A DNA stretch of 64,000 bases from Okamejei kenojei (Eukaryota). The position numbers and the translations under genes are program-made. Location of the stretch: assembly GCA_035221665.1 (NCBI GenBank), contig CM069145.1, positions 32,612,001 through 32,676,000 on the forward strand, read 5' to 3'. The stretch's first letter is position 1. Every line of letters starts with the position of its first letter. Under the pieces are notes generated by a model. The model saw nothing but the letters and a program-made list of their open reading frames with translations. It was not told where the DNA came from and made no database searches. Shown piece by piece: positions 1 to 63,800 of the stretch.

Positions 1-3000
1 TGGTTATGGCTGCATATTTGCTGTTATGTAAAATTAAAAGGAAGTGAAAACTTTTTAAAAATATTGTCACTCGTACTACCACATTAGTAATTTATTAGAA
101 ATACATATTGACTTTTTTAAATCTTTAAAATTACAGACAATACGTAGCCCAATATCTTATTAGCTACCAGTGATTCTCTAAATAGTGGCTGGTGATAAAT
201 TATGAAACAATAATTTGAAAAATCTTGAGACTTTTATTAATTCATGAAAGGAAATTGGTCTAAAAGTGATGTTTAAATTGAGTTAAATCTTAATAAAGAC
301 TACAAGGGTTTCTGCAGTGTGCTTTGATATTGTAATCCTGAGCACAGATGCTAAATTTTACCTACCTGAAACTCATTATTAATTAATTCATTTTTAATAT
401 AGATTGGATTTAATCATTTGCAAAAAGTGGAAGTATCCCTATTGATGTTAATCTATAATGCAGGTGGCTTGAATTTCACCAACCAGAGTTTAATCTGGCA
501 CTTTGTGCATCGCTAATCAAATCTTCAGTAACAGATGTGAAGAAGCTCAGTGTCAGTATGCACGTTGGAATCTTTAGTTTAATCAAATTACTCAGACGCA
601 AGATAGGTCAACACTGATCATCGTGCTGGTGGAAATTTATATTTCTCAGGCCCGCCCATTCTCTTTGTCTCAATAACAACCGTGCTCTATGCTTTCGCAC
701 GTTAAAGCAGAAATTGTGATGGTACCTGAATAATTTAAGAGTAGTCTATGATGTTGTGTGAATCTGATCAATGTCACCAAGTGGGAAACGTGACCACAGC
801 TGTGCTTGAAAAGTGTGTTCCCTACTTTGTTTTCTTGCTGTGTGTTGAAAAAACAATACTTACAGTGTTCACTTCAGTCCTTCCTGACCTTGCTGCAGGC
901 AGTAGTGTCACCAGCTGCACCAGTTAACATGGTCATCTTTTATTATTTTTTTTAAATGGTTTGACAAGGATGAAGCACATTTCATATAAACTAACATTTC
1001 CCACAGGTGTAGCAGACCTTGTTTGTGTGCCTTGTACTGTTTGTTTATTTAGCTTTTGAAGCAATTGGACTCATTCAATCTGGCACCCAATACCTATCTA
1101 TCTGATTCATCGCCTGCACGGCTCTGCCTATTTTCCTTCATTTCATTGACTTTTCAGGCAGTCAATTAAAGAAATAGATGAGAGGATTTTACTTCTCAAT
1201 TTCTTCCTGTCTATCATGACCTTGTTTCTTTTTTTTTCAAACTTCCTTAGTCCAGTTTCAGTAAATAGTTACTGAGTGCTATGCCACCTGCTAAAGGTAG
1301 TTGAGAAATTAGCTTTTCCTGAAATTACCCTGACCAATGACCTTTACCAACCCACCCTGGGTTTTTGGAAGTCTGTTCCAGCTTTCTGTGTGGCCATTTT
1401 CACTGCTCAATTTCAATGCCGGTGCGTAGCCTTTTAATTATTACATGCAAGTTTAATTCAATAAAGCTTCAACTGAGTCGAGAAACAGTTTATTTCTTTC
1501 ACTGGCTTGTATAGGACACTGCTCTTTACTGAACAAGACTGTTAGCTACTTTCACCACCAATCTTCTGATTTCTTTGTTCTGAAAGGAAAGACAAGATGA
1601 AGAAAAATCTGTGAAATCTGCACCACATACCACACAAGCTCCGATGTCAAAGGTCACTTCTGGAAGCTCGGGATTAGGAAGAGGTAAAATTATATTTTTA
1701 TCCTTAAGCTTTGATTTGTTGAGTTAATTAAGATTTTTTTTTTCATTGGGTCTGTGCAGCTAACAGGTGTTAGCCCTCAAGCATGGTCTCCCGGGCATGC
1801 AGTCTATACAGCAACTTGAGGGCGATATAATTCATTGTAGCCTTGAACGCATACAAATTGGTCGGGAAGACAACTCTTGAAGTTTTTTTCTCCAAGGCCA
1901 GATGACATGGGAACTTGAAATCCATGTCAGAAATCAAAGGAAATTTTTAACTGTCAAAATGCAAAACTTATCAACAACCACTTGACTCTTTTTTAAAGAA
2001 AAGAAGCTTTCTGTATCAGATTTCAATTCAGTCAGGTGGGAGGAACTGTGTCAGAAATTTGCAATACAAAGCAGAAATTGAGAGTGCATCAAAAATATCA
2101 GATGTAACACAAACCAACCTTCATCTCACTTGTCACATCTGCTCTGTCTAATTTAATTTTGAAACCAGAGGAGAAAAGGATCACAAACAATGTGTAGATG
2201 ATAATATTTCAATTTTTTTAATCCTGTCAAGAAAATTAACAGCTGCACGTTGGGTTAAGTGCTCACTCCAAAGCTGATTTGTATGAAACATGATGTATGA
2301 TACAATGAAAAATAATATTTCAAAAACCTAGATCGGCAGAGCCCAATACAATAATATGCTTCCAACCTTCTCACCTGATTCCATTGTTGGGATTAGTACA
2401 GTGAATTTTCTGTGAAGGGATAGCTCTTAAGCTGCGTTGAAGATGTGAAGTACAACAATAATGGTAGCAAAGAAAGGGTACTATGACATTAACTGTCTCA
2501 TTATTTACAGACCTTAAGCCACCCTATTACTTTGACATAAGGTTATCAAGCATTGCCTCAGTGAGTCTGACTCTATTGCTTTCTGTTTACTTTTCAATCC
2601 AAAGGTATGATTGGTGGTTTTTGAAGTGTTGTTCTTTATTATAGTCTTTATTTGTGTCATGTGTGATGTGATTAAAAATTTGAGAGTGGAGAAATGAAAG
2701 TGGATATCTGGTGCTTGCATAATGCCAAGGCACGACAGGTTAAAATGTCATTTGTATTTTATTCACATGAGAAATAAAGAAAGAAAACCATGTTTTTGAA
2801 ATGAGTAGATACCCTAAAAGGTAAAGAAGCTTTGCTTCATCCCAGAAAATAAGGAAATAATGCCACAGTGTAACTTGGGATCATTTTTATCCCCCCAGGT
2901 CTCAGAGTTTTGAAGCGGGAAGCGATGTTTTAATGATTACACCCTTTCATAACAACATGAATAAAACTAAAAATATTGGGACAATGGCAGTGCTGATGAA

Positions 3001-4949
3001 TGAAGTTATTGGATACAGTATATGTTCCTGGTGAAAATGCTTCAGGCATTATATTTCACTTCTGACTCTTTTTCATAAAAAAGCATTGTAGTGGATCCTG
3101 AAGCAATAATTTTATTAGCGCAAGTGAGTTCAGCATGGTCACAACACAAGCATAAAGGATTTTTATTAATTAAAAAAATAATAATAATTCAGCTTCATCA
3201 CCTTTGTAAATAAAATCTACTTTTTTGACAGAAGTGATCTACTCTGTACAGCTCATTCCTGACCCCTCTCTGGCCGGTTCCAAATTGCCTCCATAACCAT
3301 TTAAGTTCCTGTGCAAGTAGTTTTTAATCTAGATTATTACTTTCATTTTATATCTCAAGTGGCATAAACTATAGGGACTTTTAGACTCTCTTGTGGATGC
3401 ATGCATGTGTAGAGTAATGGTATTTGTAATGTACTGCTTAAAAAGTAAAGATCACATTGATGAGATGTACTCCACTGTGTGCCATGCCTATAAAACAAGG
3501 GACATTGAATCATCACAGCATTTATTAAATTTATTGCAAACTTATTTCAAATCATATCAAAATATGTTGAAGGCTATTTCAGTTGCAAGGAAGCCATTGT
3601 TACAATGGAGGTACTTTTACTGCTTGGTAAATAGACAATCCCATATGTTTCAGAATGGAGGTGGAAAAAATGTCTGTGGCTAAATGACCTCACAGCTCAA
3701 GTTACAGGTTCTGCAGGTTATTAACTCCATAAATCTTTTCCATATCCCACTCTGAAACAATTGGCACTCTGTTTTTACTCTTTATAATATTTATTGTATG
3801 CCCCCTTAAACAATATAATAAGCCATATGTTGGAAATATTTGAATAAACCACATTATAGATAATAAAAGATGTGTGCTGCGCAGCACAAGCTGAGACCTT
3901 GCTGGAAATGATAGACTTGTTCAACATGCCGTTGACTCTTAGGAATGGGATCTCTTCATATTTGTCTTTCATTGAAAAATAATTGGGTAAAAGGCCATTG
4001 ACTATATAGCCGGACACCACTGTGGTCAATTTGAGATGAACAGAAGATTAAATATAATGATGGATACTTTCCTGAGCAGGGACTACATTTTTTAGTCATC
4101 TGTTTTTGACTTGCATTAGCATAAGTCGTTGATATACACGTGAGTGCTTGTGGTATTGTTGAGGGGATTGTTTTGTGGCATGGAGCAGGTGCAGCTTAAA
4201 CCATACCATGTCACTCGCGAAGGAGCAGGATTAAGTGAGATATTATGGAACCTGCTAATTTAACCCAGTAGTTTTAGAATTTGTTTTGCTGTTTTCAGTA
4301 TTACCTCATTCGTTTCCCACATATGATGTGGCACTAGCAACATGGCACAGGAAAGTGTTAGGTAGCATATCCGGTTCAACTTCCACGCAATTAAAGAAAA
4401 AACACGTTGCTCTCCGACATGGGTTGTGTCAGCACACCTGTGACGATAATTAACCCATCCAAATTTGGACCATCATTCTGGAAGTATGATCAAAATAAGT
4501 TTAGTTGAAATAATGTTCCATAAAAGGTCGTTATGTAGCATTCAAGATTGCTTGTGGTCTGAAATTTGTTGTAATCATTTTGTGGCATGGATATAAAAGC
4601 ACCTTTAAGCAACACTAAAAAGAAATGCACACACAGAGAAGAATGCTTCATTATGCCCAAACACATTCATAACTTTATTCAGCTGTATCTTGATGTTGCA
4701 GCACCCATGGGCTGCATGAAGCAGAAGATTCTGAATGCTGTAGCAGAGTGTTACATGAGCAGTGGATACAGCAAAGGCTATAGGACCAGACAACATCCTA
4801 GGGTCTCAAACCAAGCTGTTCCAATACAGACTGCCATTTGCCCCAAAATATGGAAGGTTACTCAGAGGTAACACATTCACAAAGAGCAGAATAGATTCTG
4901 CTAAATCATTCTACTCTCAATGATCAGTTAATTCAGGAAAGCCTCATCA

Positions 4950-5300
4950 TCAATTGCCACTTACTCACCAGTAATTTCCTCACTGATGCACAGTTTGGGT
5001 TTTTCCAGGACAATTCAGCTTCACACCAAATCACAGTGTTTGTCTAAGCGTAGGCCAAAGAGCAGAATTCAAGAACAGCAATAATATTAATTTCCTGAAC
5101 ATCAAAGCACCCTGCCAAAATGAAAGTCAAGGGGATATCAAAGGGGAAACATTCCAGTGGCTGGAGTCATAACAGGTGGTTGTAGATGTTGGAGGTTAAT
5201 AATCCAGGCCTGAATAATCCTCAATATCACTGTAGGAGTTCCTCGAGTTATCGTCCACGGTCCAATTGTCTTCAGCAATTTCATCAATGACCTTCCTTCA
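4950..5300 (+). mobile_element. Old CR1-type LINE reverse transcriptase fragment (twin ~54200-54560)
   Basis: Degenerate reading QFGF... and NITVGVPRVIVHGPIVFSNFINDLPS resembles the CR1 RT motif GVPQGSVLGP..F..FINDL; frameshifted. Confidence 0.7.
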
Positions 5301-5934
5301 GAGGAAGGGCATGTATTGATGGACCTTGCCTTACCACTGTATGTGTCTGGCAAACATCCTGCATACAGGATGTCCTCAAGACTCATTCAGCCCCAGGATA
5401 TCATCTTAAATCAGATATTTAAAGGCAAATGTAAAAATACTTTTGTTTTTGGTGGAACTCTAATGAAGGGCACCATTATTTAGTACTATTGCTCGATCTT
5501 TTGCTCTTCACTCCTTACTTGTTCAATATGATCTCAGTAGGTGAAAGTGAGGAAAAGTGGTAGAACAACATTGAACATAAAAGAAGTACAACACAGACAC
5601 AGGCCCTTTGCCCCACATGTCTGCCCTGATCATAATGTCAAATTAAACTAAATAATGTGCCTGCACGTGGTTTGTATCCTGTAGTATAACCCAGGCAGTA
5701 ACTAGTCTTCCCTTTGCCATTGTACATAACACCATGGCCTCGTCATGTAGAGTAATGGAGTCAAGGAGTCACAGGGAAACAGGCCACTCAAGCTCACCAC
5801 ATCCATGCTGACCAGTGAGCACCCACCTGTAATAATCCCATTTTTCCAACACTTGTCTGATGGCTATCTATGTCCAAGCAATTCAAGTGCTCATCCAATT
5901 CAACAAAAATAGGAGATGCAACAACTACCCTTTC

Positions 5935-6265
5935 ACCCTTTTCCACCATTCAGGGCCTAAATAAACCTTCTGGATGTGGCAGAATTTCATTGCACTTCTT
6001 CTGTGTACTCTTTTCATTGTCCTCTCCAGCAGAGAAAAACAAACACAGATTGGATGGTCGCTTTGTGGAGCACCTGCCTTCGAGCTACAGGAACAACCTG
6101 AGCCTCCTGTTGCTTGCCACTTTAATACTACCCCCCACCCTTTCCCACTCTGGCTCTTCTGACGTGTTCAAAAGTGGTCCAATGACAGACTAAAAAGCAG
6201 TATCTCATATTCCAAGGAGCCACATTGCAACCTTATGAATTTAACATTGAATTGTACAACATAAT
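5935..6265 (+). mobile_element. Penelope-like element GIY-YIG endonuclease C-terminal remnant (twin ~55190-55515)
   Basis: Frame-broken peptides TIQG, KHRLDGRFVEHL, PEPPVACHFN and KQYLIFQGATLQPYEFNIE match the PLE endonuclease pattern ..TKRRLGDRF.EH..PVA.HFN..EQ.LI..L.TLQP.GLN. Confidence 0.8.
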
Positions 6266-6374
6266 GTAATCTACTTTATGTCAGAATGGACCATGTCAAA
6301 CTATCTGCATCTTAGTTTGACAGAGATGACTGAATATGTCCTTAATACATTAGAACAGTACAGCACAACAAACA

Positions 6375-7096
6375 GGGTGGCGCCATCAGCAGTGGCTGCT
6401 CCGCCAACAGTCTGTCTGTCCTTTCTTCTTTTTTGTTATTTTTCATATGTGTTAAAGACTAGGTTTAGTGTTCCTTGGTTTGTTTTATGTGGGGGAGGGG
6501 GGGGGGGGGGTTTGTGGGAACCTTTTTTTCAATCTCTTACCTCGATGGAGATGCAATTACCGTCCATATTGTATCTCCATCCCTACTGCGGCCTAACATC
6601 GTGGTGTTGACAACCTTTCCTGGAGACCGAGCCGGCGCTCCAAGCCGCGGGAGTCTGCGGGACTTTAACATTGCGGAGCTTGCGATCCATTTGCCAGGGA
6701 TTAAAGTTCCAACCGCGGGGCCTGTGGACTTTGACATCGTGAAGTCTGAGGTCTCTGGTAAGAAGAGGCCGACTCGGGAGCTCCATGCCGCGGAGAGAGT
6801 TTCAACTGCCCCAACGCGGGAGTTTCGATCACCCCAACGGGTACTCCGATTGTCGGCCGCAGGGACTTTGATCGCCCTGACTGCGGAGGGTTTGACTGTC
6901 TCGACCTCGGGAGAACAAGAGGAAGAAGTTTGAATTTTATTGCCTTCCATCACAATGAGGAATGTGGAATCCTCTGTGGTGGAGGTTTATGTTAACTTTT
7001 ATTTGGTTGTGTGACTTTTCACTTAGCTTTTCACTTAGTATGGATGTATGGTAACTTAAATTTCACTGTACCATAATTGGTACATGCGACAATAAA
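6375..7096 (+). mobile_element. CpG-rich ~720-bp non-autonomous retroposon with LINE-type 3' tail (twin 55626-56341)
   Basis: T-rich tract and G-run, then a GC-rich body with degenerate internal repeats, ending ttcactgtaccataattggtacatgcgacaataaa. Shares blocks (ggcgctccaagccgcgg; tgaggaatg..tgtggtgga) with 39515-40305. Confidence 0.75.
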
Positions 7097-7430
7097 GTGA
7101 TGCCAAGACTATCACTCATCTACCTGCACATTCTATCATTAATTTAAGCAACATTTATTTTCCTTGTGGATTTCATCATTTCTAACTTTAGCCTTAAATT
7201 TTAGTTTGATCTTGACGGAAGGGTCCACTGTTCTCAGATGCCAGCACATGCCCAAACTTACCTGGTCCACGTGTAGAGATAGTATCTTGCTGACCAACAG
7301 TGATAATGCTGCTGCAAGAACTCCAATCATTTACTGAGGAAGCCCTGCCTGCCCCAATATTAGATTTAATAGCCTGCAAAGCTGTTTTCTGGCTTTGCCA
7401 GCTATCAAAACTGTGAAGTCTTAATAAACT

Positions 7431-7685
7431 TTAGAGATAAAGTGCAGAAACAGTCCCTTCGGCCCATTGAGTACACACCGACTAGTGATCACTAGCGTAC
7501 ACCAATATTATCCTACATACTCTAGAGATAATTTTTACTGAAGCCAATTAATCTACACACCTGCACGTCTTTGGAATGTGGGACGAAACCCACGCGGTCA
7601 CAGGGAGAATGTATAAACTCTGTACAGACAACACCCATAGTCAGGATTGAACCCGGGTCTCTGGCACTGTAACTGCTGCACCACC
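7431..7685 (-). mobile_element. tRNA-derived HE1/V-SINE (twin ~56674-56942)
   Basis: Minus strand has a B-box (gggttcaatcc), a V-domain-like gagtttatacattctccctgtgaccgcgtgggttt and a CR1-like 3' tail (cccttcggccc on +). Confidence 0.85.
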
Positions 7686-7928
7686 CCTTTACTTTAAAAG
7701 TCTTTTAAATTAAATAATGAATGGGAAAAATGTAAACTAAATTTAACATAAATTAAATGCATCTTTTAAAAACACGGAGCGGTACTTGACCTTGCTTTAT
7801 TGCTTCAAAACACTGTGATCCACTTAGAAATTAATGGGGTCAAGGATTTTGCACGAGATCTGATCTGGGACAGGATCCAAGCATGAATATTCCTTCCACA
7901 AATGCTGGGATTTTCAACAAGGCATGTT

Positions 7929-8041
7929 GAAAACTGAATAAAGAAAATAGACTATATTGCTGGTCTTTTCGTGAAGCCAAACTTATTGTTTGGCTTCACG
8001 AAACGGCCAGCAATATAGTCTATTTTCTTTATTCAGTTTTC
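7929..8041. repeat. Near-perfect palindrome/hairpin, 54-bp arms, 5-nt loop
   Basis: Arms 7929-7982 and 7988-8041 are reverse complements with 2 mismatches; loop ttatt. Confidence 0.95.
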
Positions 8042-9430
8042 CAAGGCCAGCAGCTCAAGATTTTCTCACACCACGACTACATTCGGTTTGAGAGATTTCA
8101 CGCCCAAATTGTTCTGGTCAGTTGGCATCCATACTAAATTATTATTATTTTTTGCTTCAGTGCAAATGGTGCAGCATATTTGGTTTATAGGATACTTAAT
8201 GAAAACATTTCTGTGACAATGTCAATGCATTAACCTATGCCTTGTGACATGACCAGGTAATGGCCTTTGCTTAGTTGCTCACTGACTTCAATTAGCAGGA
8301 AATAGTAACAAGCAGTTTCTCACACACCACACGTCCGCAGCCAATCGTAATTTTCTTCTTGGTCCAAGGGGATAATAAAAATAGACACTAACAGATGTAC
8401 CATATGCTTTAAATCATCATTTAATTAGGCAATAATAAATGGAACGACAAACCGTACACAGATTGGGGTTTTACCACCCCAGGGATTGTTTTGGCATAAC
8501 GCAGCTGAGAGCTGAAGCAATTGCTGATGTGGCAGAAGCTCAGCTACACCTACTCTTGGTTGTTTATTATTGTCATTTGTTCACCAGGTTTCTTCATCAT
8601 ATCCTGACGCCATTTTAATGGAGTAAATTAATCAGAATTTAAGCTGTAAATTACAGCAGCCTTATCAAAGACTTCAACTAGGAACTTGTCACATCCTCAA
8701 TGTACAGATAGAGTGTGCATTTAGTAATTATAAGGGTAGGCTCAGTGTCACTACATTTTCTAATACTGACCCAACTAACAGGGTTCATTTTTAAGGCCAC
8801 TATGGTTGAAGTCTATCTACAAATATTGTCTTTTTTAATGCCATCCCTGGACATAACTTTCCTTGGCATTTATGCTTCATCAGGAAGAATCAACCAATGT
8901 ACCTACAACTCTTTACTAGTCAGTGACCTCTACTGAATCATGCAGTTGGGTGGAATTGATGAAAGTAAGGTTAAATTAGCTGTAGATGCAGCCCCTTGCC
9001 TACCCTGCCCATTGCCACCAAATCTAAAATTATTCACAAAGACAACTTGTAGGGTCTCAGGTTGATATCTAATGTGGACAGTCCCACCACAAATGTCGTA
9101 GCACTCCCTCTGTCCATCTTTTTCCCAGTGATTTGGAGATGAGAGTGTTAGCAATTAAGGCAATGCTCACATCTGTGGACTAATCATTCCCATAGTAAGC
9201 TACCCCAGCAAGAGTCAGAAGGTAAGATATATATCTCAGAGATAGGAATTCCAGCCTAAGGAGGCTCTCTTTAACCTGGTTGGATGTAGAGTCTTTCAAT
9301 TGTACCACTCGGAAGCTTGCCATACTGTGGGGTTGCAGGTGGCCTACACAATTTATAGCAAAGGAAATATTTTTCCTTAAAATTTTACAGTCTTATCTTT
9401 TGGTATTGGCACACCCAGTTTTACTGGAGA

Positions 9431-9692
9431 CACAAAGAATTGCAGATTCTGGAATCTTGGATGGAAGATAAAATACTGGAGTAAGTCAGCAGGTCAGGAA
9501 GCATCTCTAGAGTACATGGAAAGGTGACATTTCTGTTCAGGACACGTCTTCAGGCTCGGCCTTTGGGCCTGGAACCTTCCTCACCCTCTTCTTCTGATTC
9601 TGAAGAAGGGTCCTGATGTGAAATGTCACCTGTCCATGTCCTCCAGAGATGCTGCCTGACCTGCTGAGTAACTCCAGCACTTTTGTTCTACA
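9431..9692. mobile_element. Inverted pair of Penelope-like pseudo-LTR fragments with degenerate hammerhead motif (twin ~58691-58952)
   Basis: ctggagtaagtcagcaggtcaggaagcatctc mirrored by gagatgctgcctgacctgctgagtaactccagca; ctgaagaagggtcctgatgtgaaatgtc at 9600. Confidence 0.75.
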
Positions 9693-9949
9693 TGATTTAA
9701 CTGTCTGGAGACCCATAGTCTTCCTGCTCAGTGACTATTAAATGCCACAATCATTTAAATGAAGAATGTCAGTTTTCCACATGCATAGTTTATAAATTCA
9801 AAAATTATCGGAGCTGAAATCTGGCCTTTTGGCCCATCAATTCTACTCCACTATTCAATCATGGTTGATCTATCTTTCCCTTTCAATACTTTGCACCTTT
9901 GCACCATTGCAACGATGGCTCAATTCTAACACAGCTCTAGGTCAAATAA

Positions 9950-10265
9950 TTCTGGGTTCATCACTGCAGGAACCTCAATCTCAGATGCAGTCTAATGCAG
10001 TATTGAGATAATTCCACATTGTTGGAGGTACAGTTGTTTGAATTAGATGTTAAACATAGATATGTCTGCTCACTCAGATTAACCTGTAAAGGATCCCGTG
10101 GTCTAATTACCACTCAATCAGTGTTACCAAATTGCACCATTGCTGTTTGGAAGATATTGTGCAAGGAAACTGGCTACTTTGTGTTCAACATTACAACTAC
10201 AGCTGAATTCCAAATAGTACTTCATTAGCACTTTGGAATATCCTGATGGTATAATAAGAGATGAA
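9950..10265 (+). mobile_element. Ancient Deu-domain SINE (SacSINE/AmnSINE-like), degenerate (twin ~59210-59525)
   Basis: agatgttaaac..gtctgc..tgtaaaggatcccgtgg and cattgctgtttgg..acattacaac..tacttcattagcactttgg resemble the Deu-SINE core and 3' region as I recall them. Confidence 0.6.
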
Positions 10266-10616
10266 TGAATTACATCGGTATAATATGGGAGAGGGCCGGT
10301 GCAGAAAATCACACAGGAAACAAAATGGGACCAAGGGTAGGGTCCCTCAAAGCATTATTTGGAATAAAAGAAATTCAAGCAAACCACTCTTGCAGTAGGT
10401 GTAAAAGTAATTGTAAAAGTGTTTGTTTCTTTGTAATACTCATTGCTGTTGTTATAAACAAAGGACTACGTTAAGCAATCTGAAATAATGGTGTACAGGT
10501 GTAATTCAATTAAAAAATATATATAACTGGCTGTCATTTTAGTTACTTATAATAAATAAATACTCGTACAAAAATGTTAGTGAGTTGTTGGGAATAAAAG
10601 TGGGCAACTGGTTACC

Positions 10617-10635
10617 AGATACCACCTAGTGGACA
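10617..10635 (-). promoter_or_regulatory. Candidate CTCF site (twin 59877-59895)
   Basis: Minus strand TGTCCACTAGGTGGTATCT matches the CTCF core CCASYAGRKGGCA with one mismatch. Confidence 0.4.
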
Positions 10636-10762
10636 CAAAGGAATATATTCACCTGCTGCCTGGCGCATGGGTAGGATGTGAGTACTTGTGAAGTGCATCA
10701 CACTGAAGAATACTAACATTCGCAGAATTGCTTTGAACTGCTCATGTTTCATTTATGCACAG

Positions 10763-10956
10763 GTGCAAATCCTTCATCATTAACTGAGGCGGAGGGCCAA
10801 GGAGGATGAAACCCTGCACAAAGCTTTCTTGGATGCCTTTCCCGCAAATGATGTTGTATTGAACAAGTATTCCGCTATGCTTTACATCTCAGCAACGGTG
10901 GCGTCACCTACGAAGAAGTCAATGAAGCCACAGTGTGTTTGAACTGTGCAGAGAAG
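10763..10956 (+). other. Twin of the candidate exon at 60023-60216, with compensating +1/-1 indels
   Basis: Same sequence as 60023-60216 but with an extra G at ~10801, a missing C at ~10890 and a synonymous GGT/GGC difference. Confidence 0.35.
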
Positions 10957-11480
10957 GCAAGCACGAAATTAATCAATTGTTATGTGTAGCAGTGGAATGA
11001 TATTTTGTGTTGAAACAAATAATATATAATTGGGTATAAAGTTTGTCAACAGGTCAGAAACATAGAGCGAGGCAGGAGGATCTCTGGCATTTCTTTAAGA
11101 CCCAGTTTTTTTCATACACCTTGCAGGCCCATCAAGCTGCCCTGACAAGAATTGACAACATAAGGCTGTGAAGCATTGGCTCTCTAAACTGCATTATTGA
11201 AGCAAGGAAGAAGTCACAGTTTATTTCACTTTGAAATAATCCTTCCCTCTTCTTGTGGCTGGCATATGACCGACCTCAATACGTACTCTAGGGGAGGGCA
11301 TGGTACAGAGCCGCACAGTCCAGGAATTCCCAAGATTTCCTCTTCAGTCTTTGCTATTAATCAGCCTCAGTCAGCTGTATCTAAAGTAGGAAAAGGGAAA
11401 ACTGGTCCGGTCTCATGGTCCTGATCGCTATCTTATTAACCCTCCTGGTAACTCAGAACACAGAAGAGTACAGCAAAGGA

Positions 11481-11693
11481 ACAAAAAGCTGGAGTAACTC
11501 AGCCAGACAGGCAGCATCTCTGGAGAGAAGGAATGGGTGATGTTTCGTGTCGAGGTCTGAAGAAGGGCCTCGACCCGAAACGTCGCCCATTCCTTCTCTC
11601 CAGACATGCTGCCTGTTACTCCATTTTACTGAGTTACTCCAGCTTTTTGTGTCTATCTTCGATTTAAAATAGCATCTGCAGTTCCTTCCTACA
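11481..11693. mobile_element. Inverted pair of Penelope-like pseudo-LTR fragments (twin ~60741-60952)
   Basis: aaaaagctggagtaactcag..gcagcatctctggagagaaggaatgggtga is the reverse complement of cccattccttctctccagacatgctgc..gagttactccagcttttt; flanked by CR1 remnants. Confidence 0.85.
11554..11587 (+). ncRNA. Minimal type-I hammerhead ribozyme motif (Penelope-associated)
   Basis: ggu-CUGAAGA-a-GGG[ccucga]CCC-GAAAC-GUC-gcc: both core boxes, helix II, palindromic ACGU helix III, GUC cleavage triplet and a short helix I. Confidence 0.7.
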
Positions 11694-12667
11694 AAACAAA
11701 GGAACACGGCGGTGACCAGAACTGTACACAATATTCCAAATTTGGCCTAATCAAAGTTCCGTAGAGCTGTAACATGAGAAAACCATCTATATATTAGATG
11801 AGGACATGTTGGAGATCATCTTTACTAAGATTTTACAGTTAAGTTTGTACACTAAAGACAGTGCTTCAGCACACATCTGGAGGATGACTGCTTGGTTACA
11901 AAATACCAGAGAGCTGCTGAAACAAATCAAACAATAGGCATTATTAAACATGACTTCATGTTTTCTTTTGGAAATAGGAAAGGTACTAAGGTTAGAAACT
12001 TGCAAGGGATGAAGGCTACTTGGGAAATAATCTGTCAGGATAAAGTCTTGCTGGGAGCAGGAAAAATAATTTTAAAACGTTTTCTTCAAAGTGTACTTTA
12101 ATGTTAAATGCCCCCCCCCCCAATTGTTCAGAAGTGAGAGTGGCACACTTAAAATAAGGAATAGTAGTTCAAATCATTTGTCTCTGCAAAATATGTTTAA
12201 TGACAATAAAGAAGTCCCATAATTATAAAACAGAGGATGAAGATTTGATATTCTCACACTACTTCACAAAATAAGTGGTGAAATGATCCAGGAAGTTTAT
12301 TGAAAATAAAATTTTGACAAAAAAATTATTATTATTTTCAGTAAGAAAAAGAATGACCAAAATGATAAGAAACCCTACAACATACAGACTTCTTATTTCA
12401 TAGAAATATACCAGAAATAATTTTTTTTTGTGCATGTTTTCAGATGCCTTGCCAACAACAGTGCCATTACCACTGAGTTAAATTTAGTATTGGTAATCAA
12501 TGGTCCTATTGAAGCCTGGAAACATTAAGGAAACTGGGAATATCTGATAAGTCAGTCTGGAGAAAAGTAGTGTAGGGTGGGTCATTCCATTCGACATGTA
12601 CAGAGGTTCATTTCAGTTCAGATATACCTTAATTTCTTCTGTAAGGATATTAATTTGCTGACTAAAT

Positions 12668-12968
12668 GTGTAGGAGGGAACTGCAGATGCTGTGTTTGAA
12701 ACTGAAGATAGACACAAAATGCTGGAGTAACTCAGCTGTGGACAGGCAGCATCCTGGAGAGAAGGAATGGGTTGACGTTTCGTGTCAAAATCCTTCTTCA
12801 GACTGAAAACTCATGGGGAAAGGGAAAAGAGAGATACAGACCATATCTATATCTCTTGTTTCACTTTCCCGGGAGTTCAGTCTGAAGAAAGGTCTCGACC
12901 AATATGTCACCTTTCCTTCTTTCCACGGATGTGCCTGTACCGATACTCCCGTTTTTTGTGTCTATCCT
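12668..12968. mobile_element. Inverted pair of Penelope-like pseudo-LTR fragments, hammerhead motifs on both strands (cleaner twin ~61917-62215)
   Basis: Minus CTGAAGAAGGATTTTGACACGAAACGTC (12801-12774); plus CTGAAGAAAGGTCTCGACC at ~12882. Confidence 0.8.
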
Positions 12969-13309
12969 TATTTGCATGATGGTCTCTCAAGTGTTATTGT
13001 TGACTTATGCTTGGTGCAGGCTGTTATTGAGCTTCATTTGCTCTGGTGTAAAGTATGTTGTTTACAGGGACCAAGATGTGTTTTTTTCCTCACTGGAAAT
13101 ATAACATGGTTAAAAAGTATAAGATAACACATGTGCAGGCTTACCATCACAGTCATTGAGCTATGCCGATTTCCTGTGGCAGAATGTGGTAATACTATCT
13201 CTCTATGATGATATTGACCACCATTATGCCAATTGAACCCTAATAACGAATGGTCAGATTCACAATAAGCAGAAGTGACCCATCTAGACTTGGTGGAGAT
13301 AGATTCGGT

Positions 13310-13475
13310 TTTTTTTTTTTAGTTAGAGATTATGCGTGAAAGTAAAGGCCATCTCGCCCACCGGAGTCGTGCTGGTGACCAGCGATCCCTCACTTAACAC
13401 CATCCTACACACACAGGGGACACTTTTACCTTTACCAAGCCCAATAGCCTACAACGTTCTTTGGAGTGCAGATAG
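13310..13475 (-). mobile_element. 3' half of an HE1/V-SINE (cleaner twin ~62555-62705)
   Basis: tttagttagagat..gaccagcgatccc..ttaacaccatcctacacacacagggga..agcctacaacg, same family as 7431-7685. Confidence 0.7.
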
Positions 13476-13734
13476 ATCTTTGGGATGGGAAATATCATGC
13501 TCTTGAGATGGCAGAATCCTTGCCATCCTTCATGGATCTACGCCTTCTCAGGGGATCACTACCAGAAAAAGTAAGGAGAAAAGTATATTTTTTAATACTT
13601 AATTGTTTTGAATCCCTAAGATGACATGGAATTCTATCTCCTGCTGAAAAAGGGGGGATAGGTATTTTATCAAGTGGTATGAGTTTGGGACCATTTCCAC
13701 TTATGTAGAGTTTTTCTTAATCTGATTAAGTGTT

Positions 13735-13860
13735 CTTCAGAAGAAGGTTTTAGCCCGAAACGTTTGGCCTATTATTCGCTCCATAGATTGCTGCCTTCAC
13801 CGTGAGTTTTAGCATTTCTGTCCACCTTCGATTTTACAGCATCTGCAGTCCCTTCTTAAA
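13735..13860 (+). mobile_element. Penelope-like pseudo-LTR fragment, second subfamily (twin ~62972-63102)
   Basis: Twin reads agaagaagcgttttggcccgaaacgttgcctatttccttcgctccatagatgctgc..ccagcatctgcag; hammerhead-like GAAAC-GTT. Confidence 0.7.
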
Positions 13861-14223
13861 TGATATAAGTGTAGCGGTGGCAAAGAGGGAAGGTGCAGAA
13901 AATATGCAATCAGCTGTGGCAGCCACTTAATGCTGCCTTTGGTGGGGCGAGCCTAAAGATGCAATAAAGTCAGTAAAATTGGGGTGTGTTAATGCTCTAA
14001 AGAAATTACATGAAATTTTCATCGCCTGCTGGGTTTTATTTAAAAAAATAGATATATTATTAATATATTGTTTGATACTGGCCTGTACCTAATTTACCAC
14101 GGTGCAATAAGGGTTATTGTTTTATGTTGTGTTGTGGTTTTTGAGTTATTAGACAATTTCAAATAGGTTGAAAGCAAGCACTAATTAATGACAGTTTACT
14201 GCATTAATCATTAATGACTTAAA

Positions 14224-24202: not shown

Positions 24203-24335
24203 TGTGTAGGAAGGAACTGCAGATGCCGGTTTAGACCAAAGATAGACACAAAATGCTGGAGTAACTCAGCGGGACAGGCAGCATCTCTGGAGAGAAGGAA
24301 TGGGTAACATTTCGGATAAGACCCTTCTTCAGACT
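24203..24335 (-). mobile_element. Penelope-like pseudo-LTR with hammerhead motif, nested in the LINE
   Basis: Minus strand CUGAAGA-a-GGGU[cuu]AUCC-GAAAU-GUU (24332-24306). Confidence 0.8.
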
Positions 24336-33340: not shown

Positions 33341-33570
33341 GAAACACAAAAAATTGCAGAAGCGCTGGAGGAACACAGTGGGTCAAGTGGCGACTGGGGA
33401 GGCAATGGACCGGTGGAATTTCAGGTTGGGACCCTTCTTCAGACTGTTAGGAGTAGTGGGGGTATGAAAGCTGGAAATGAAAGGTGAGGGTGTGCAAAGT
33501 CTACTAAGTGATGGTTGGATACAGGTGAGTGGGGGGTCGATTGGTAGATGGGTGGAAATGGCAGAAGATT
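33341..33570 (-). mobile_element. Penelope-like 3' region with degenerate hammerhead
   Basis: atttcaggttgggacccttcttcagactg followed by a purine-rich extension. Confidence 0.65.
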
Positions 33571-33791
33571 TTAGGATATACGAATTCAATCCATAGGAAG
33601 GATGAGTGGAAGTAAACTTGAGGAAAGAACTAACATGATGAGAATAATAATGATTATTACAAAATACCATGCAGAAATATACAAAAGTCAGACATCTGCA
33701 ATTACTTTTTATTTACGTCAGGGTACAGCTCAAGGTCATCCAATGTCCCAGAAATTCTGTCTTCATAATTGCTTGTTTTTTCAAAAAAGAA

Positions 33792-33882
33792 CACAAACTA
33801 TTGGAATAACTCAGCAGGTCAGGTAGCTCTGGAGAACATGCATAGTTGACGTTTTGGGCCGAGACCCTTCTTCAGACTGATG
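33792..33882 (-). mobile_element. Penelope-like pseudo-LTR; hammerhead GAAA box mutated to AAAA
   Basis: Minus CTGAAGAAGGGTCTCGGCCCAAAACGTC (33875-33848). Confidence 0.75.
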
Positions 33883-38007: not shown

Positions 38008-38075
38008 AGTATGAAGAAGAATCCCAACCCAAAATGTTCTCCTGAGATGCTGCCTGACCTGATGAGTTATATTTT
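38008..38075 (+). mobile_element. Degenerate Penelope-like pseudo-LTR fragment
   Basis: tgaagaagaatcccaacccaaaatgt..gagatgctgcctgacctgatgagtta. Confidence 0.55.
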
Positions 38076-43420: not shown

Positions 43421-44706
43421 TTTTCTTCCCATTCAGAGTAGAATTCTGGTGGTGAATATACAGTAGCCCAGTAGGTCTGAAATCTGGAAACTGCCTTCAA
43501 TTTTGACAAAAAAAGGAAAAAATATTTCAAACTATAGTGGATTAGAAATTCTATTGCACAGCACATCTTTACAGCATGTTAGGATTATTACACCTTAGTA
43601 ATGCCTTAAATATTTGTAGTTTTGCATTTCTAATCATTTTCTCAATAGTGACTATTCATCAATTAAATTTGGCAATCCAATATTGATTTTGGATATGGCA
43701 GGTAGGATTCCCTCATGGTAAGGATAATATCCCACTGAGTTTAAACACAATTACAATTTGTACAGTACTAGTGAATCTGAAATTTAAAGAATGTACCTTA
43801 GGTATGTATAAGGCCTGTGAATCTTGTTTCTTTATTTTATTCTATGTATTATTATAATATAATCTTTGGTCATAACCCATTCTGATTGAATTCTAAAATG
43901 TATTCATTTAAATAGTAACACTAAAGCTCTTGTTATTTTGATACATAGTCCAATACAAGGATCATCGGAATCATCTTAAAGTTTCCACCTTCCAAGCCTC
44001 ATGCCATCTGCAGTATCAGAGTACAAGCTTGTAGCCCAGGCAGTGAATTATATCAAAAATTAGAGGAAAACTTGCTTTATTTTTGAGCAATAAAGTTTAA
44101 CTGGCAAATGGGTGGCGAGGGGGAAGAAGATAAAAGTAATATCTCAAGTACTTCCACAGGTCTAAATATGCTGGTGCTTATATATTCATGATATTGCCAT
44201 TAATCTGCACACTAACGTATTGGTAAATAGATTCAATTGAACCTGGTCCTGTGGGTACCCAAAATTAGAAAAACAGAAACAAAGTTAGGCAGCACCTGCA
44301 GAAAGAGAAACTGACTAAAACCCCTGTCTCACGGTGCGAGTTGACCCATGAGTGACCCCGACTTGTCACTCGCGGTAATCACGTACACTAAACGTAGTGG
44401 GAACATGTTTGATTTTTTCCACGAGTCAAATTTACAGTTCAAGTTAAAAATTGAACCATTTTAAACTCGTTTATAACGTGGTGGCCCGTGCGTTTACCTA
44501 AGTGATTCGTGAGTCTACCGTGGGAACTCTTTTAACTCAGCGGGCAGGCAGCATCTCTGGAGAGAAGGAATGGGTGACGGGATGACATTTCCAAATTTCT
44601 CCAGCCCCATGTGTTCACTTTTTTCAACTAGCAGCTGCCCTTTCTTGTGTATGGCATTATTTGTATCTACAGTGCCTTGTGTCTTGGCAATTCATGATTC
44701 ACACAC

Positions 44707-44840: not shown

Positions 44841-45205
44841 ACACACAATGCTGAAGTAACTCGCACACACACACACAATTCTGGAGTAACTCGCACACAC
44901 ACAATTCTGGAGTAACTCGCACACACACAATGCTGGAGTAACTCACATACACACACAATGCTGGGGTGACACACACAATGCTGGGGTAACTCGCACACGC
45001 ACACACACAATGCTGGGGTAACTCTCTCTCTCACTCACACACACACATACACACACACACACACACTCACACACACACAGCTGGAGTAACTCGCACACAC
45101 ACACACAATGCTAAGGTAACTCACACACACATACACACAATGCTGTAGTAACTCACATACACACACCAACAATGCTGGAGTAACTCTCACACACACACAA
45201 TGCTG
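44841..45205 (+). repeat. Minisatellite: (CA)n + ATGCTGGAGTAACTC units
   Basis: About ten units of cacacaatgctggagtaactc with variable CA spacers, running into a Penelope-like fragment at 45200. Confidence 0.95.
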
Positions 45206-45357
45206 GTGGGACAGGCAGCATCTCCGGAGAGAAGGAATGATGATGTATCGGGTCGAGACCCTTCCTTAGACTACTACCCAGAGATGCTGCCTGTCCCGCT
45301 GAGTTACTCCAGCATTTCGTCTATCTTTAAACCAGCATCTGGACTTCCTTCCCACAC
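45200..45357. mobile_element. Inverted Penelope-like pseudo-LTR pair
   Basis: gggacaggcagcatctc..gggtcgagacccttc, then gagatgctgcctgtcccgctgagttactccagca. Confidence 0.8.
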
Positions 45358-45911: not shown

Positions 45912-46337
45912 GTGTCTGAAGAACCGACCCGAAACCTCATCTATTTCTTTTTTCCAGAGATGCTGCCTGAGCTGCTGTGTTACTCCAGCTTTTTGTCTAT
46001 CTTCGATGTAAACCAGCATCTGCAGTTCCCTTCCCGCACAATATAGTATGAACGTCGGGTTTCTAATCTGATACACAATAGATAGGGCACCATCCTCGGG
46101 CTAACCTGGTGACAGGCTGTAGGAAGCAGCTGCAGATGCTGCTTTAAACCAAAGATAGATGCAAAATGCTGGAGTCACTCAGCGGGACAGGCTGCCGTCG
46201 TCCATATTCTAGTGACACGCAACATATTGGTGTTCCCGTGCAGCTCTACACCAGAACAAACACTGAAGAAGGGTCTCGACCCGAACTGTCACCCATTCCT
46301 TCTCTCCAGAGATGCTGCCTGTCCCGCTGAGTTACTG
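45912..46337. mobile_element. Cluster of Penelope-like pseudo-LTR fragments in both orientations
   Basis: ctgaagaaccgacccgaaac (~45915), tgtaggaagcagctgcagatgctg (~46118), ctgaagaagggtctcgacccgaactgtc (46263). Confidence 0.8.
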
Positions 46338-57189: not shown

Positions 57190-57302
57190 GAAAACTGAAT
57201 AAAGAAAATAGACTATATTGCTGGTCTTTTCGTGAAGCCAAACTTATTGTTTGGCTTCACGAAAAGGCCAGCAATATAGTCTATTTTCTTTATTCAGTTT
57301 TC
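57190..57302. repeat. Near-perfect hairpin, 54-bp arms (twin of 7929-8041)
   Basis: Only one non-Watson-Crick position, which is a U-G wobble on the + strand RNA. Confidence 0.95.
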
Positions 57303-60022: not shown

Positions 60023-60216
60023 GTGCAAATCCTTCATCATTAACTGAGGCGGAGGGCCAAGAGGATGAAACCCTGCACAAAGCTTTCTTGGATGCCTTTC
60101 CCGCAAATGATGTTGTATTGAACAAGTATTCCGCTATGCTTTACATCTCCAGCAACGGCGGCGTCACCTACGAAGAAGTCAATGAAGCCACAGTGTGTTT
60201 GAACTGTGCAGAGAAG
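60023..60216 (+). CDS. Candidate internal coding exon of an unidentified protein
   Basis: Acceptor tttatgcacag|G; open frame ANPSSLTEAEGQEDETLHKAFLDAFPANDVVLNKYSAMLYISSNGGVTYEEVNEATVCLNCAEK; possible GC donor AAG|GCAAGC; more GC-rich and codon-like than flanks. I do not recognise the protein. Confidence 0.4.
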
Positions 60217-60813
60217 GCAAGCACGAAATTAATCAATTGTTATGTGTAGCAGTGGAATGATATTTTGTGCTGAAACAAATAATATATAATTGGGTATAAA
60301 GTTTGTCAACAGGTCAGAAACATAGAGCGAGGCAGGAGGATCTCTGGCATTTCTTTAAGACCCAGTTTTTTTTATACACCTTGCAGGCCCATCAAGCTGC
60401 CCTGACAAGAATTGACAACATAAGGCTGTGAAGCATTGGCTCTCTAAACTGCATTATTGAAGCAAGGAAGAAGTCACAGTTTATTTCACTTTGAAATAAT
60501 CCTTTCCTCTTCTTGTGGCTGGCATATGACCGACCTCAATACGTACTCTAGGGGAGGGCATGGTACAGAGCTGCACAGTCCAGGAAGTCCCAAGATTTCC
60601 TCTTCAGTCTTTGCTATTAATCAGCCTCAGTCAGCTGTATCTAAAGTAGGAAAAGGGAAAACTGGTCCGGTCTCATGGTCCTGATCGCTATCTTATTAAC
60701 CCTCCTGGTAACTCAGAACACAGAAGAGTACAGCAAAGGAACAAAAAGCTGGAGTAACTCAGCCAGACAGGCAGCATCTCTGGAGAGAAGGAATGGGTGA
60801 TGTTTCGTGTCGA

Positions 60814-60847
60814 GGTCTGAAGAAGGGCCTCGACCCGAAACGTCGCC
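60814..60847 (+). ncRNA. Minimal hammerhead ribozyme motif (twin of 11554-11587)
   Basis: ggtCTGAAGAagggcctcgacccGAAACGTCgcc, identical in both duplicated copies. Confidence 0.7.
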
Positions 60848-63800
60848 CATTCCTTCTCTCCAGACATGCTGCCTGTTACTCCATTTACTGAGTTACTCCA
60901 GCTTTTTGTGTCTATCTTCGATTTAAACTAGCATCTGCAGTTCCTTCCTACAAAACAAAGGAACAGGCGGTGACCAGAACTGTACACAATATTCCAAATT
61001 TGGCCTAATCAAAGTTCCGTAGAGCTGTAACATGAGAAAACCCATCTATATATTAGATGAGGACATGTTGGAGATCCATCTTTACTAAGATTTTACAGTT
61101 AAGTTGTACACTAAAGACAGTGCTTCAGCACACATCTGGAGGATGACTGCTTGGTTACAATACCAGAGAGCTGCTGAAACAAATCAAACAATAGGCATTA
61201 TTAAACATGACTTCATGTTTTCTTTTGGAAATAGGAAAGGCTAAGGTTGAGAAACGTGCAAGGGATGAAGGCTACTTGGGAAATAATCTGTCAGGATAAA
61301 GTCCTTGCTGGGGAGCAGGAAAAATAATTTTTAAAACGTTTTCTTCAAAGTGTACTTTAATGGTAAATGCCCAATTGTTCAGAAGTGAGAGTGGCACACT
61401 TAAAATAAGGAATAGTAGTTCAAATCATTGTCTCTGCAAAATATGTTTAATGACAACTAAAGAAGTCCCCATAATTATAAAACCAGAGGATGAAGATTTG
61501 ATATTCTCACACTACTTCACAAAAATAAGTGGTGAAATGATCCAGGAAGTTTATTGAAAATAAAATTTGACAAAAAAATTATTATTATTTTCAGTAAGAA
61601 AAGAATGACCAAAATGATAAGAAACCCTACAACATACAGACTTCTGATTTCATAGAAATATACCAGAAATAATTTTTTTGTGCATGTTTTCAGATGCCTT
61701 GCCCAACAACAGTGCCATTACCACTGAGTTAAATTTAGTATTGGTAAATCAATGGTCCAATTGAAGCCTGGAAACATTAAGGAAACTGGGAATATCTGAT
61801 AAGTCAGTCTGGAGAAAAGTGAAGGGTGGGTCATTCCATTCGACATGTACAGAGGTTCATTTCAGTTCAGATATACCTTCATTTCTTCTGTAAGGATATT
61901 AATTTGCTGACTAAATGTGTAGGAGGGAACTGCAGATGCTGGTTGAAACTGAAGATAGACACAAAATGCTGGAGTAACTCAGCTGGACAGGCAGCATCCC
62001 TGGAGAGAAGGAATGGGTGACGTTTCGTGTCAAAATCCTTCTTCAGACTGAAACTCATGGGAAAGGGAAACGAGAGATACAGACCATATCTATATCTCTT
62101 GTTTCACTTTCCCGTGACGTTCAGTCTGAAGAAAGGTCTCGACCCAAAATGTCACCCATTCCTTCTTTCCACGGATGCTGCCTGTCCCGATACTCCAGTA
62201 TTTTGTGTCTATCCTTAATTTGATGACTGGTCTCTACAAGTGTTATTGTTGACTTATGCTTGGTGCAGGCTGTTATTGGGCATCATTTGCTCTGTGTAAA
62301 GTATGTTGTTTACAGGGACCAAGATGTGTATTTTTCCTCACTGGAATATAACATGGATAAAAGTCATAAGATAACACATGGTGCAGCTTACATCACAGTC
62401 CCATTGAGCTATGCCACCCTGTGGCAGAATGTGGTAGGCTGAGATAATGCTATTGCCACATTAAAGCCCAAAGAACCCTAATAACGAATGGTCAGATTCA
62501 CAATAAGCAGAAGTGACCATCTAGACCTTGGTGGGAGATAGATTTGTTTTTTTTTTAGTTTAGAGATACTGCGTGAAAGTAAGCCCATCAGCCCACCGGG
62601 TCCGTGCTGACCAGCGATCCCCACACATTAACACCATCCTACACACACAGGGGACACTGTTTACATTTACCAAGCCAATTAGCCTACAAACGTCTTTGGA
62701 GTGCAGATAGATCTTCTTGGATGGGAAATCTCATGCTCTTTGAGATAGGCAAGAATCCTGCCCATCCTCATGGATCCTACCTTCTCAGGGAACACTACCA
62801 GAAAAGTAAAGGAGAAAAGTATATTTTTAATACTTAATTGTTTCCTGAATCTAAAGATGACATGGAATTCTATCTCCTGCTGGAAAAAGGGGGATAGGTA
62901 TTTTATCAAGTGGTATTGAGTTTGGACATCTTCACTTTTGTAGAGTTATTCTTAATCTGATATAAAGTGTTCTTCAGAAGAAGCGTTTTGGCCCGAAACG
63001 TTGCCTATTTCCTTCGCTCCATAGATGCTGCTTCACCCGCTGAGTTTCTCCAGCATTTCTGTCCACCTTCGATTTTCCAGCATCTGCAGTCCCTTCTTAA
63101 ACTGATATAAAGTGTAGCGGCTGGCAAAAGAAGGGAAGGTGAAGAAAATCTGGCAATCAGCTGTGGCAGCCACATAATGCTGCCTTTGGAGGGGCGAGCC
63201 TAAAGATGACAATTAAAGTCAGTAAAATTGTAATGCTCTAAAGAAATTACATGAAATTTTCATTGCCTCTGGGTTTTATTTAAAAAAATAGATATATTAT
63301 CTAATATATTGTTTGATACTGGCCCTGTACCTAATTTACCACGGTGCAATAAGGGTTATTGTTTTATGCTGTGTTGTGGTTTTTTGAAAGGTTCATTAGA
63401 CTATTTCAAATAGGTTGAAAAGCAAGCACTAATTAATGACAGTTTACTGCATTACTCTTAATGACTTAACTAAGAGATTTTCAATCTAAATAAATCTAGT
63501 GGTATTTAGATTATAATGATAAATGTTTTAGCTAATCACAACCCAATATTTTCCATTATTATAAGGATATCAGGAAGATCATTGTTTGTGCTTATGGGTC
63601 AGACAGTATGTTAATGTTTGTTAGATTTGACGTGGGGCAATTAAGACATAGCCTCGCTTGAGTACTTTTTTCAGCAAATTACATTTGATTTCATGCAACA
63701 TGGTCGCAAATTCTGCCTCAAGTACACTATGTTATCGCTTAATCTTATGGAGGAAGTGGTTAACTGAAAACACGAGGTTTAGTAGAATTGGAAAAGAAAC

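Follow-up and report, generated by a model that had tools for sequence, protein, structure and literature searches.

A head-to-head insertion of Penelope-like retrotransposon ends with a minimal, likely silent hammerhead motif in the genome of Okamejei kenojei

The insertion at 11481-11693 and its surroundings

The window, by which we mean the whole 64,000-nucleotide stretch analysed here, contains at 11481-11693 two head-to-head 3' ends of a putatively Neptune-type Penelope-like retrotransposon, which together form one insertion with a 10-bp target duplication (Table 1). The long arm matches positions 1-131 of a profile derived from 29 copies of this 131-nt segment in the genome (E 2e-42), and the same segment follows the ends of GIY-YIG reading frames in loci L111-L119. 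The inverted short arm pairs with the long arm in the predicted fold. A sequence-only reading of this DNA had described the motif CTGAAGA-A-helix II-GAAAC-GTC, which we found at 11557-11584 on the plus strand and again at 60817-60844, and had assigned it to the minimal type-I hammerheads with a palindromic helix III, in agreement with the core and the ACGU that are both present at 11557-11584. This candidate core follows the pattern CUGANGA ... GAAA ... NUH with a bulged base before helix II and consists of CUGAAGA (11557-63), the bulged A (11564), helix II (11565-67/11574-76), GAAA (11577-80), and the palindromic ACGU at 11580-83, which would form helix III without loop 3. Helix I and helix II measure 2 bp and 4 bp as a rule of the family. 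In the 11557 copy, helix II is just 3 bp, with C11568 and A11573 mismatched, and helix I is 3 bp, its third pair being supplied by G11554 at the inversion junction; this third pair is unpaired in 42 of the 53 rows of the family alignment. The palindromic helix III pairs are present across the family (A-U in 47/53 rows, C-G or U-G in 43/53). An Rfam search of the 64-kb window at gathering threshold returned no matches.

The profile search of the window yielded 28 matches, of which the 21 outside a regional duplicate resolve into ~12 insertion loci with five head-to-head pairs. Controls were clean, with no profile matches in a reversed genome sample and no descriptor matches in three block shuffles. 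Ten further variant sites had been listed from the letters of the sequence, and a family arm lies at or beside all ten, but only 24332(-) passes the strict descriptor and the rest are decayed. In the whole window this strict minimal descriptor accepts just 11557, its duplicate 60817, and 24332(-), i.e., 2 of the 12 loci. Roughly ten independent loci had been suggested, and the profile search gives ~12; the 60817 copy is a duplicate and not independent. Sub-motifs of the element have also expanded to short tandem arrays, at window 44841-45170 and at L071:1581-1869.

Table 1. Coordinates of the insertion, the other family copies, and the probable host exon in the window
Feature	Position	Strand	Remarks
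Older head-to-head pair	9434..9699	long arm -, short arm +	cores decayed; fails descriptor
Probable host exon	10763..10956 (duplicate 60023-60216)	+	AG acceptor, GC donor; ~520 bp upstream of insertion
Left target-site duplication	11474..11483		10 bp; last 3 bases overlap end of inverted arm
Inverted short arm	11481..11553	-	antisense of element positions ~15-97; ends at short 3' site; without CUGAAGA box
Long arm	11554..11693	+	pseudo-LTR 3' end, from hammerhead to long 3' site, including ~35-nt tail
Candidate minimal type-I hammerhead core	11557..11584	+	sequence and descriptor match; predicted cleavage after C11584
Right target-site duplication	11697..11706		10-mer identical to left one
Head-to-head pair	12669..12969	long arm -, short arm +	~76 bp separates arms; cores decayed
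Solo arm	13738..13858	+	decayed; profile match
Solo long arm	24205..24334	-	passes descriptor via wobble pairs, GUU triplet
Solo short arm	33360..33444	-	decayed; profile match
Solo short arm	33781..33877	-	without G12; profile match
Solo arm fragment	38010..38070	+	decayed; profile match
Arm fragment	44533..44579	-	without CUGA box; profile match
Head-to-head pair	45169..45356		left arm continues into tandem expansion of element sub-motif, 44841-45170
Solo long arm	45914..46031	+	deletion within helix II
Head-to-head pair	46118..46336		~67 bp separates arms; right arm minus one A of GAAA
Duplicate of 11481-11693 insertion	60741..60952		inside regional duplication, not independent

Positions 1-14222 of the window recur at 49247-63469 with 97.6% identity, as part of a ~34-kb region that is present twice at 97.7-99% and reaches ~20 kb before the window. 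Because the first copy of this region stops at a 500-N stretch, after a last 2 kb that is indel-rich and falls to 91% identity, the two hammerhead copies were counted once; the duplicate may be an uncollapsed assembly overlap. Given the probable exon ~520 bp upstream, the insertion is probably intronic, with the hammerhead on the sense strand. A contig from a sequencing run, RNA by guess, matches 60078-60216 with one difference, and its remaining 135 nt lie off the window. The probable exon carries an Asp-box-like motif and occurs in the genome only at its two positions in the window. A Pfam search for the host gene gave nothing above the cut-off, and Sortilin-Vps10, a high-confidence lead from Atlas, was not confirmed as host gene, as none of ten PF15902 matches lies at the locus. 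The word AAAGGAAC, which resembles the reverse complement of the element's tail end, stands in the flank 11474-11483 and just upstream of 24334 (-); with two cases only, this recurrence may be chance. Downstream of the window, at ~87,300-90,600 in window numbering (L152), there is a tandem array of ~3.3 kb with a unit of ~64 bp.

Parent elements, abundance and insertion mode

The Penelope-like origin claimed for the motif is supported by RT and GIY-YIG reading frames directly upstream of it. Longer copies of the arm segment come after the end of a GIY-YIG frame, at L112 also with an RT frame, and the same RT-then-GIY-YIG order is found upstream of the subfamily that contains the 11557 copy. 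A very young family with an open 1185-aa ORF is present at L133:2051-6902 and also at L134, L137, L141, L143, and L147. Its member L133, a young relative of the window copy, is complete, with the ORF between two pseudo-LTRs that are 99.8% alike and both contain the hammerhead; across L133, L134, and L137, these direct repeats span 495-898 bp, are 99.8-99.9% alike, and have a hammerhead inside each. In Pfam, the L133 ORF matches RVT_1 at 669-839 (E 5e-6) and GIY-YIG at 1089-1122 (E 0.004), both below the curated cut-offs, and a PDB sequence search with the ORF returned no matches. Genome-wide, a first look gave 38,767 RT candidates, and open frames of up to 1197 aa occur among the 150 that were scored. 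This young Neptune-type family is likely to have been active recently. At L147:3323-6946, a young element is nested in an older stub of its own family.

A C-x4-C-x2-C linker precedes the GIY-YIG region in L133 and in L111-L119. The assignment to Neptune, which we take to be the clade found in vertebrates, rests on this linker together with that occurrence and is a probable one, Nematis having the same linker. According to PMC8557442, a CX2-5CxxC linker between RT and endonuclease marks both the Neptune and the Nematis clades.

Abundance was extrapolated, with a genome size of 2.76 Gb, from a sample of 1,199,500 bases: the 36 largest contigs were sampled at round coordinates in 120 pieces of 10 kb each, evenly spread rather than formally random. 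Arms of the family occur in 108 of the 120 pieces and number 525, against none in the reversed control, which extrapolates to ~1.2 million arms (bootstrap 1.03-1.38 million) and 4.1% of bases. With pairs merged, the sample holds 424 insertions, equivalent to about a million genome-wide. The descriptor accepted 71, 57, 10, and 7 matches at a helix I of at least 0, 2, 3, and 4 bp (none in three shuffles), from which ~163,000, 131,000, 23,000, and 16,000 intact cores, respectively, are extrapolated. The very large genome-wide load envisaged from the density in the window is thus borne out as a number, but not as a load of active self-cleaving motifs, since the 525 arms compare with 71 descriptor matches and helix II is rarely predicted.

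Neighbouring arms within 40 bp of each other in the sampled 1.2 Mb are arranged head-to-head in 82 cases, tail-to-tail in 8, and on the same strand in 19. Two sites account for the 3' ends of the arms, one near positions 95-105 and the other near 125-131. The published insertion signature combines an inverted truncated copy, a one-sided 30-40-nt tail, and a target duplication (PMC8557442, PMC3846280), and all three, the inverted copy being 5'-truncated, were found in the family. The expectation that these elements often insert with an inverted terminal copy agrees with this signature and with the five head-to-head loci of the window. Head-to-head geometry, short plus long arms, and flanking duplications indicate that a pair is one insertion, and such pairs are likely a by-product of the element's insertion mode.

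This mode could resemble that of the Penelope-like element of the anole, whose protein cuts and extends both DNA strands in vitro and begins reverse transcription on uncleaved RNA at two adjacent sites that bound the tail (PMC11167929). By analogy, the skate protein would nick both DNA strands, and reverse transcription would begin, also on uncleaved RNA, at two neighbouring sites that follow the hammerhead at distances of ~95 and ~130 nt. An inverted pair would then represent two cDNAs joined by their 3' ends, and a solo arm one cDNA. Short and long arms are combined in 48 of the 69 classifiable pairs, as compared to 34.5 expected (p=8e-4), and a flank word of at least 7 is common to both sides in 24/68 pairs but in just 7.7% of mismatched flanks. 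The 21/69 pairs that are not short plus long and the 44/68 pairs lacking a common word of that length count against the model. Young inverted elements combine a short and a long arm in three of three cases, with target duplications of ~14-32 bp. One of them, L143:2935-7440, has a target duplication of ~32 bp (read by eye), which is longer than the 8-10 bp quoted for Penelope-like insertions (PMC3846280).

Predicted folds and host selection

The insertion 11481-11693 is predicted to fold as a single hairpin (-132.8 kcal/mol, z -18.3, 0/200 shuffles), in which the GAA box has an unpaired probability of 0.001 with the antisense arm and 0.996 without it. The antisense arm had been supposed to pair over the ribozyme, and in the prediction it does cover the cleavage site of the 11557 core. 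Both arms span the cleavage region in 54 of the 82 close pairs, and in the head-to-head geometry the antisense arm would be transcribed first in either direction and would pair over the cleavage site. For the 11557 core without the arm, helix II has a predicted probability of 4e-5, and helix II is predicted at P>0.5 in 2/84 solo and 2/30 paired cores. Because solo copies are also predicted to favour a non-hammerhead fold, the antisense arm would be unneeded for silence. In the young family, at L133:2850-2978, predicted folds join a purine run in the first half of the hammerhead to pyrimidines of the long 3' end site; alternative pairings of this kind, there and at window 11554-11693, would exclude the hammerhead fold. 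For the window copy, a dimer restricted to helix II and an intermolecular helix III scores -10.5 kcal/mol, and the best co-fold scores -27.4 kcal/mol, a weak comparison, as nearest-neighbour energies ignore tertiary contacts and protein.

Covariation in the hammerhead helices across copies was not above shuffles in the one family aligned here (0.179 vs 0.169, 61/500 shuffles as high, 53 distinct rows). From this alignment, 7 of the 58 candidates, a cluster with an internal deletion, had been omitted, and five rows were added. Helix changes are mostly one-sided wobble, and a single closely related family gives low power.

The idea that active ribozymes burden the whole genome and that selection keeps the antisense arm as a protection of host transcripts is highly improbable on the present evidence. 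It draws on the ~130,000-160,000 intact cores obtained by extrapolation, on the predicted burial of the cleavage site in the fold-back hairpin (z -18), and on the 11557 locus itself, which probably lies in an intron and has its core in sense orientation. Introns were represented by 40 stretches (400 kb, possibly with small exons) between collinear exon matches of 19 ion-channel and myosin genes, 20 per strand, and their 224 arms divide into 114 sense and 110 antisense. Within this set we found neither a sense depletion among solo arms (66 vs 62 antisense, p=0.79), nor a deficit of intact sense cores among them (15/48 vs 13/44 antisense, p=1.0), nor an enrichment of pairs (48/176 insertions vs 101/424 genome-wide, p=0.41); with 28 intact solo cores, the test rules out only strong depletion or strong effects. 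The proposed protection of host pre-mRNA by the inverted arm was therefore not upheld by the introns, and the 400-kb sample gives no sign that inverted pairs are selected as a safety switch. Paired arms are also not more often intact than solo arms (17/121 vs 47/236), and helix I has just 2 bp. In PMC4209133, minimal hammerheads did not cleave as single units and cleaved little as dimers, with which the review PMC6765202 agrees, and the hammerhead of the anole element cleaves only with protein (PMC11167929).

The slightly higher conservation of the core relative to downstream sites is a further point in favour of active ribozymes. G12, which is part of a CpG, is changed in 55/241 arms, compared to 62/305 for downstream CpG guanines (273 arms), and hence decays at the CpG rate. 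Changes at the eight non-CpG core positions amount to 124/2063 (6.0%), compared to 905/10776 (8.4%) for a set of 42 downstream positions that are invariant (p=2e-4). The two sets do not differ in their rates for G and T; A changes less in the core, and a few downstream A positions vary by lineage. These rates leave room for weak constraint on the cores, and unresolved subfamily variation could also explain the lower change at A. The 11557 hammerhead is likely a silent, decaying passenger. We consider it quite probable that the locus as a whole is best explained as a Neptune-type head-to-head insertion, one among roughly a million stubs, in which the hammerhead is likely such a passenger.

5' ends of the arms and comparison with known systems

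Unpaired arms (n=338) rarely begin at the cleavage site (3 of the 279 at risk), and we rejected hammerhead cleavage as the source of the 5' ends on this count. These counts suggest that the RNA copied in vivo is uncleaved, like the template of the anole element in vitro. The 5' ends pile up before CUGA: of the 239 arms extending as far as the hammerhead start, 157 lack any detectable parent sequence beyond it, and the other 82 run on into parent upstream sequence, where truncation amounts to 0.003-0.004 per base. Template bases are retained in 135 flank-joined arms at frequencies of 0.76 at -1, 0.47 at -3, ~0.3 at -4/-5, and 0.08 at -6, and the width of the boundary rests on this base composition, upstream extensions of less than ~25 nt being invisible to the BLAST step. 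The same 5' boundary is seen in 55 intronic flank-joined arms. Contigs of another organism's run have unrelated loose ends at L133:2850 and 2851 (357 and 404 records), to which divergent subfamily sequence contributes. Every upstream subfamily variant is pyrimidine-rich and ends in YCAGT, which we take to fit the initiator consensus.

The simplest reading of the pile-up suggested by these sequences is run-off at the RNA 5' end. Most cDNAs would be short, beginning in the 5' pseudo-LTR copy and running off the RNA 5' end, for which the initiator-like YCAGT that directly precedes CUGA would be the place; we judge this account about evenly balanced. Combined into one proposal, in which the RNA starts at the first hammerhead bases and strong-stop-like cDNAs of 95 or 130 nt integrate singly or as head-to-head twins and so fill ~4% of the genome, the reading is tentative, falling somewhat short of even. 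The Penelope promoter of D. virilis is internal, with Inr and DPE (PMC2377424). A DPE-like reading of the GAAACGTC stretch was discarded, as it matches the motif given there only in part. Likewise, we rejected a cap-derived extra G before AGT, a post-hoc signal (10 of 18 non-C bases, p=0.0075) that gave 3/14 vs 27% expected in a replicate specified in advance, where pairs had 0/5.

The sharp 5' boundary would also be expected if the stubs were a SINE- or MITE-like non-autonomous family, themselves transcribed and copied in trans by means of an internal promoter at YCAGT and the RT start sites. Such an origin, which we consider unlikely, would be in line with the internal Inr/DPE promoter of D. 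virilis Penelope, with the mobilisation of a host gene in trans by pseudo-LTR sequences alone (PMC3846280), and with the summed contig depth of run X17, a rough measure by which the hammerhead-tail segment is a few hundred times as deep as the ORF start. However, the 82/239 arms that extend into the parent upstream sequence do so with a low and even truncation rate, and variants of the short copies also occur, by eye, on ORF-linked copies.

Instead of two reverse transcriptases and a transcript end, self-priming or snap-back at local palindromes, either helix II or TCAG/CTGA around the first T, could alternatively give rise to both the pairs and the pile-up. For inverted junctions, Arkhipova et al. 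propose self-priming from palindromes (PMC3846280). Many junctions lie at positions 1-20 with overlaps of few bases, and the boundary coincides with a 4-bp inverted repeat, which makes this a possible, if doubtful, origin. Against it, solo arms have the same 5' boundary without a fold-back, and their 3' ends are divided between the short and the long site (123 vs 91), which is what a pair of fixed start sites would produce. The in-vitro extension of both strands by the anole protein (PMC11167929) is a further point against it.

Finally, a pyrimidine tract followed by CAG is what a 3' splice site would look like, so that the stubs could be copies of spliced RNA. A pyrimidine-rich stretch closed by YCAG is common to all upstream subfamily sequences, and in D. 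virilis the 5' end of helix I is where an intron ends (PMC4209133). We nevertheless regard splicing as improbable, because the 135 flank-joined arms have no common first exon and their composition is at background by -6, and a GT..AG joint ending here was not found among the 15 joints listed of more than 200. If the pile-up reflects run-off at the RNA 5' end, a million junctions would map the transcription start and both priming sites of Penelope-like elements.

In a literature search of mostly openly accessible main texts, we came across no paper that deals with hammerheads of elasmobranchs or with the 5' pile-up; the supplements of PMC4209133 and bioRxiv 10.64898/2026.07.22.740005 may list related fish or chondrichthyan motifs. 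By the features tested at the sequence level, the family segment belongs to an endonuclease-bearing Penelope-like element, of which it forms the pseudo-LTR end, and contains a minimal type-I hammerhead motif. It shares with the metazoan Penelope-like hammerheads of PMC4209133 the CUGANGA box, one bulged base before helix II, G10.1-C11.1, the palindromic 15.2-16.2 without loop 3, and the location inside pseudo-LTRs, mostly as scattered singles. For S. mansoni, Cervera and de la Pena (2014, PMC4209133) had already described neighbouring hammerheads on opposite strands. Helix II and helix I have 4 bp and 2 bp in the skate family, in contrast to 7-8 and 4-5 bp in S. mansoni; the D. virilis variant has a helix I of 2 bp (PMC4209133). 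The skate motifs are extrapolated to 16,000-160,000 by stringency, compared to ~4,000 in coelacanth and ~9,000 in Xenopus (PMC4209133), counts obtained by another descriptor and thus not strictly comparable.

In the order of RT, Zn-finger-like linker, and GIY-YIG, as well as in 5' truncation, the adjacent inverted copy, the 30-40-nt tail, and the target duplication, the family resembles endonuclease-bearing elements with the Neptune/Nematis linker (PMC8557442, PMC3846280). Most skate insertions are cut to the last 95-130 bp, with 5' ends at the 5' edge of the hammerhead, a feature not found in the accessible parts of these two papers. The anole element PAc (Poseidon, Anolis carolinensis; Frangieh et al. 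2024, PMC11167929) likewise has two adjacent 3' end sites that bound a tail downstream of the hammerhead, and its genomic copies also pass uncut through the cleavage site. PAc belongs to another clade, and its ORF starts in helix II, whereas the first ATG of L133 lies ~165 nt downstream of the hammerhead start. Like the animal non-LTR retrozymes, the stubs are non-coding, Penelope-derived, and equipped with a type-I hammerhead motif (bioRxiv 10.64898/2026.07.22.740005). We rejected an identity as tandem retrozymes, which form head-to-tail arrays (same preprint), whereas the window has solos and head-to-head pairs, and neighbouring arms are head-to-head in 82 cases vs same-strand in 19. The ribozyme and its suggested role in host protection matter little here: both the ribozyme class and the inverted pairs are known from earlier papers, and what host protection would predict was not borne out when first examined in the introns. 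The tail and the target duplication have likewise been described before, and the pile-up of 5' ends before CUGA is a detail unreported in the sources accessible to us. With about a million insertions and many near-identical young open ORFs, the skate family is good material for studying the integration of Penelope-like elements and the role of their hammerheads.
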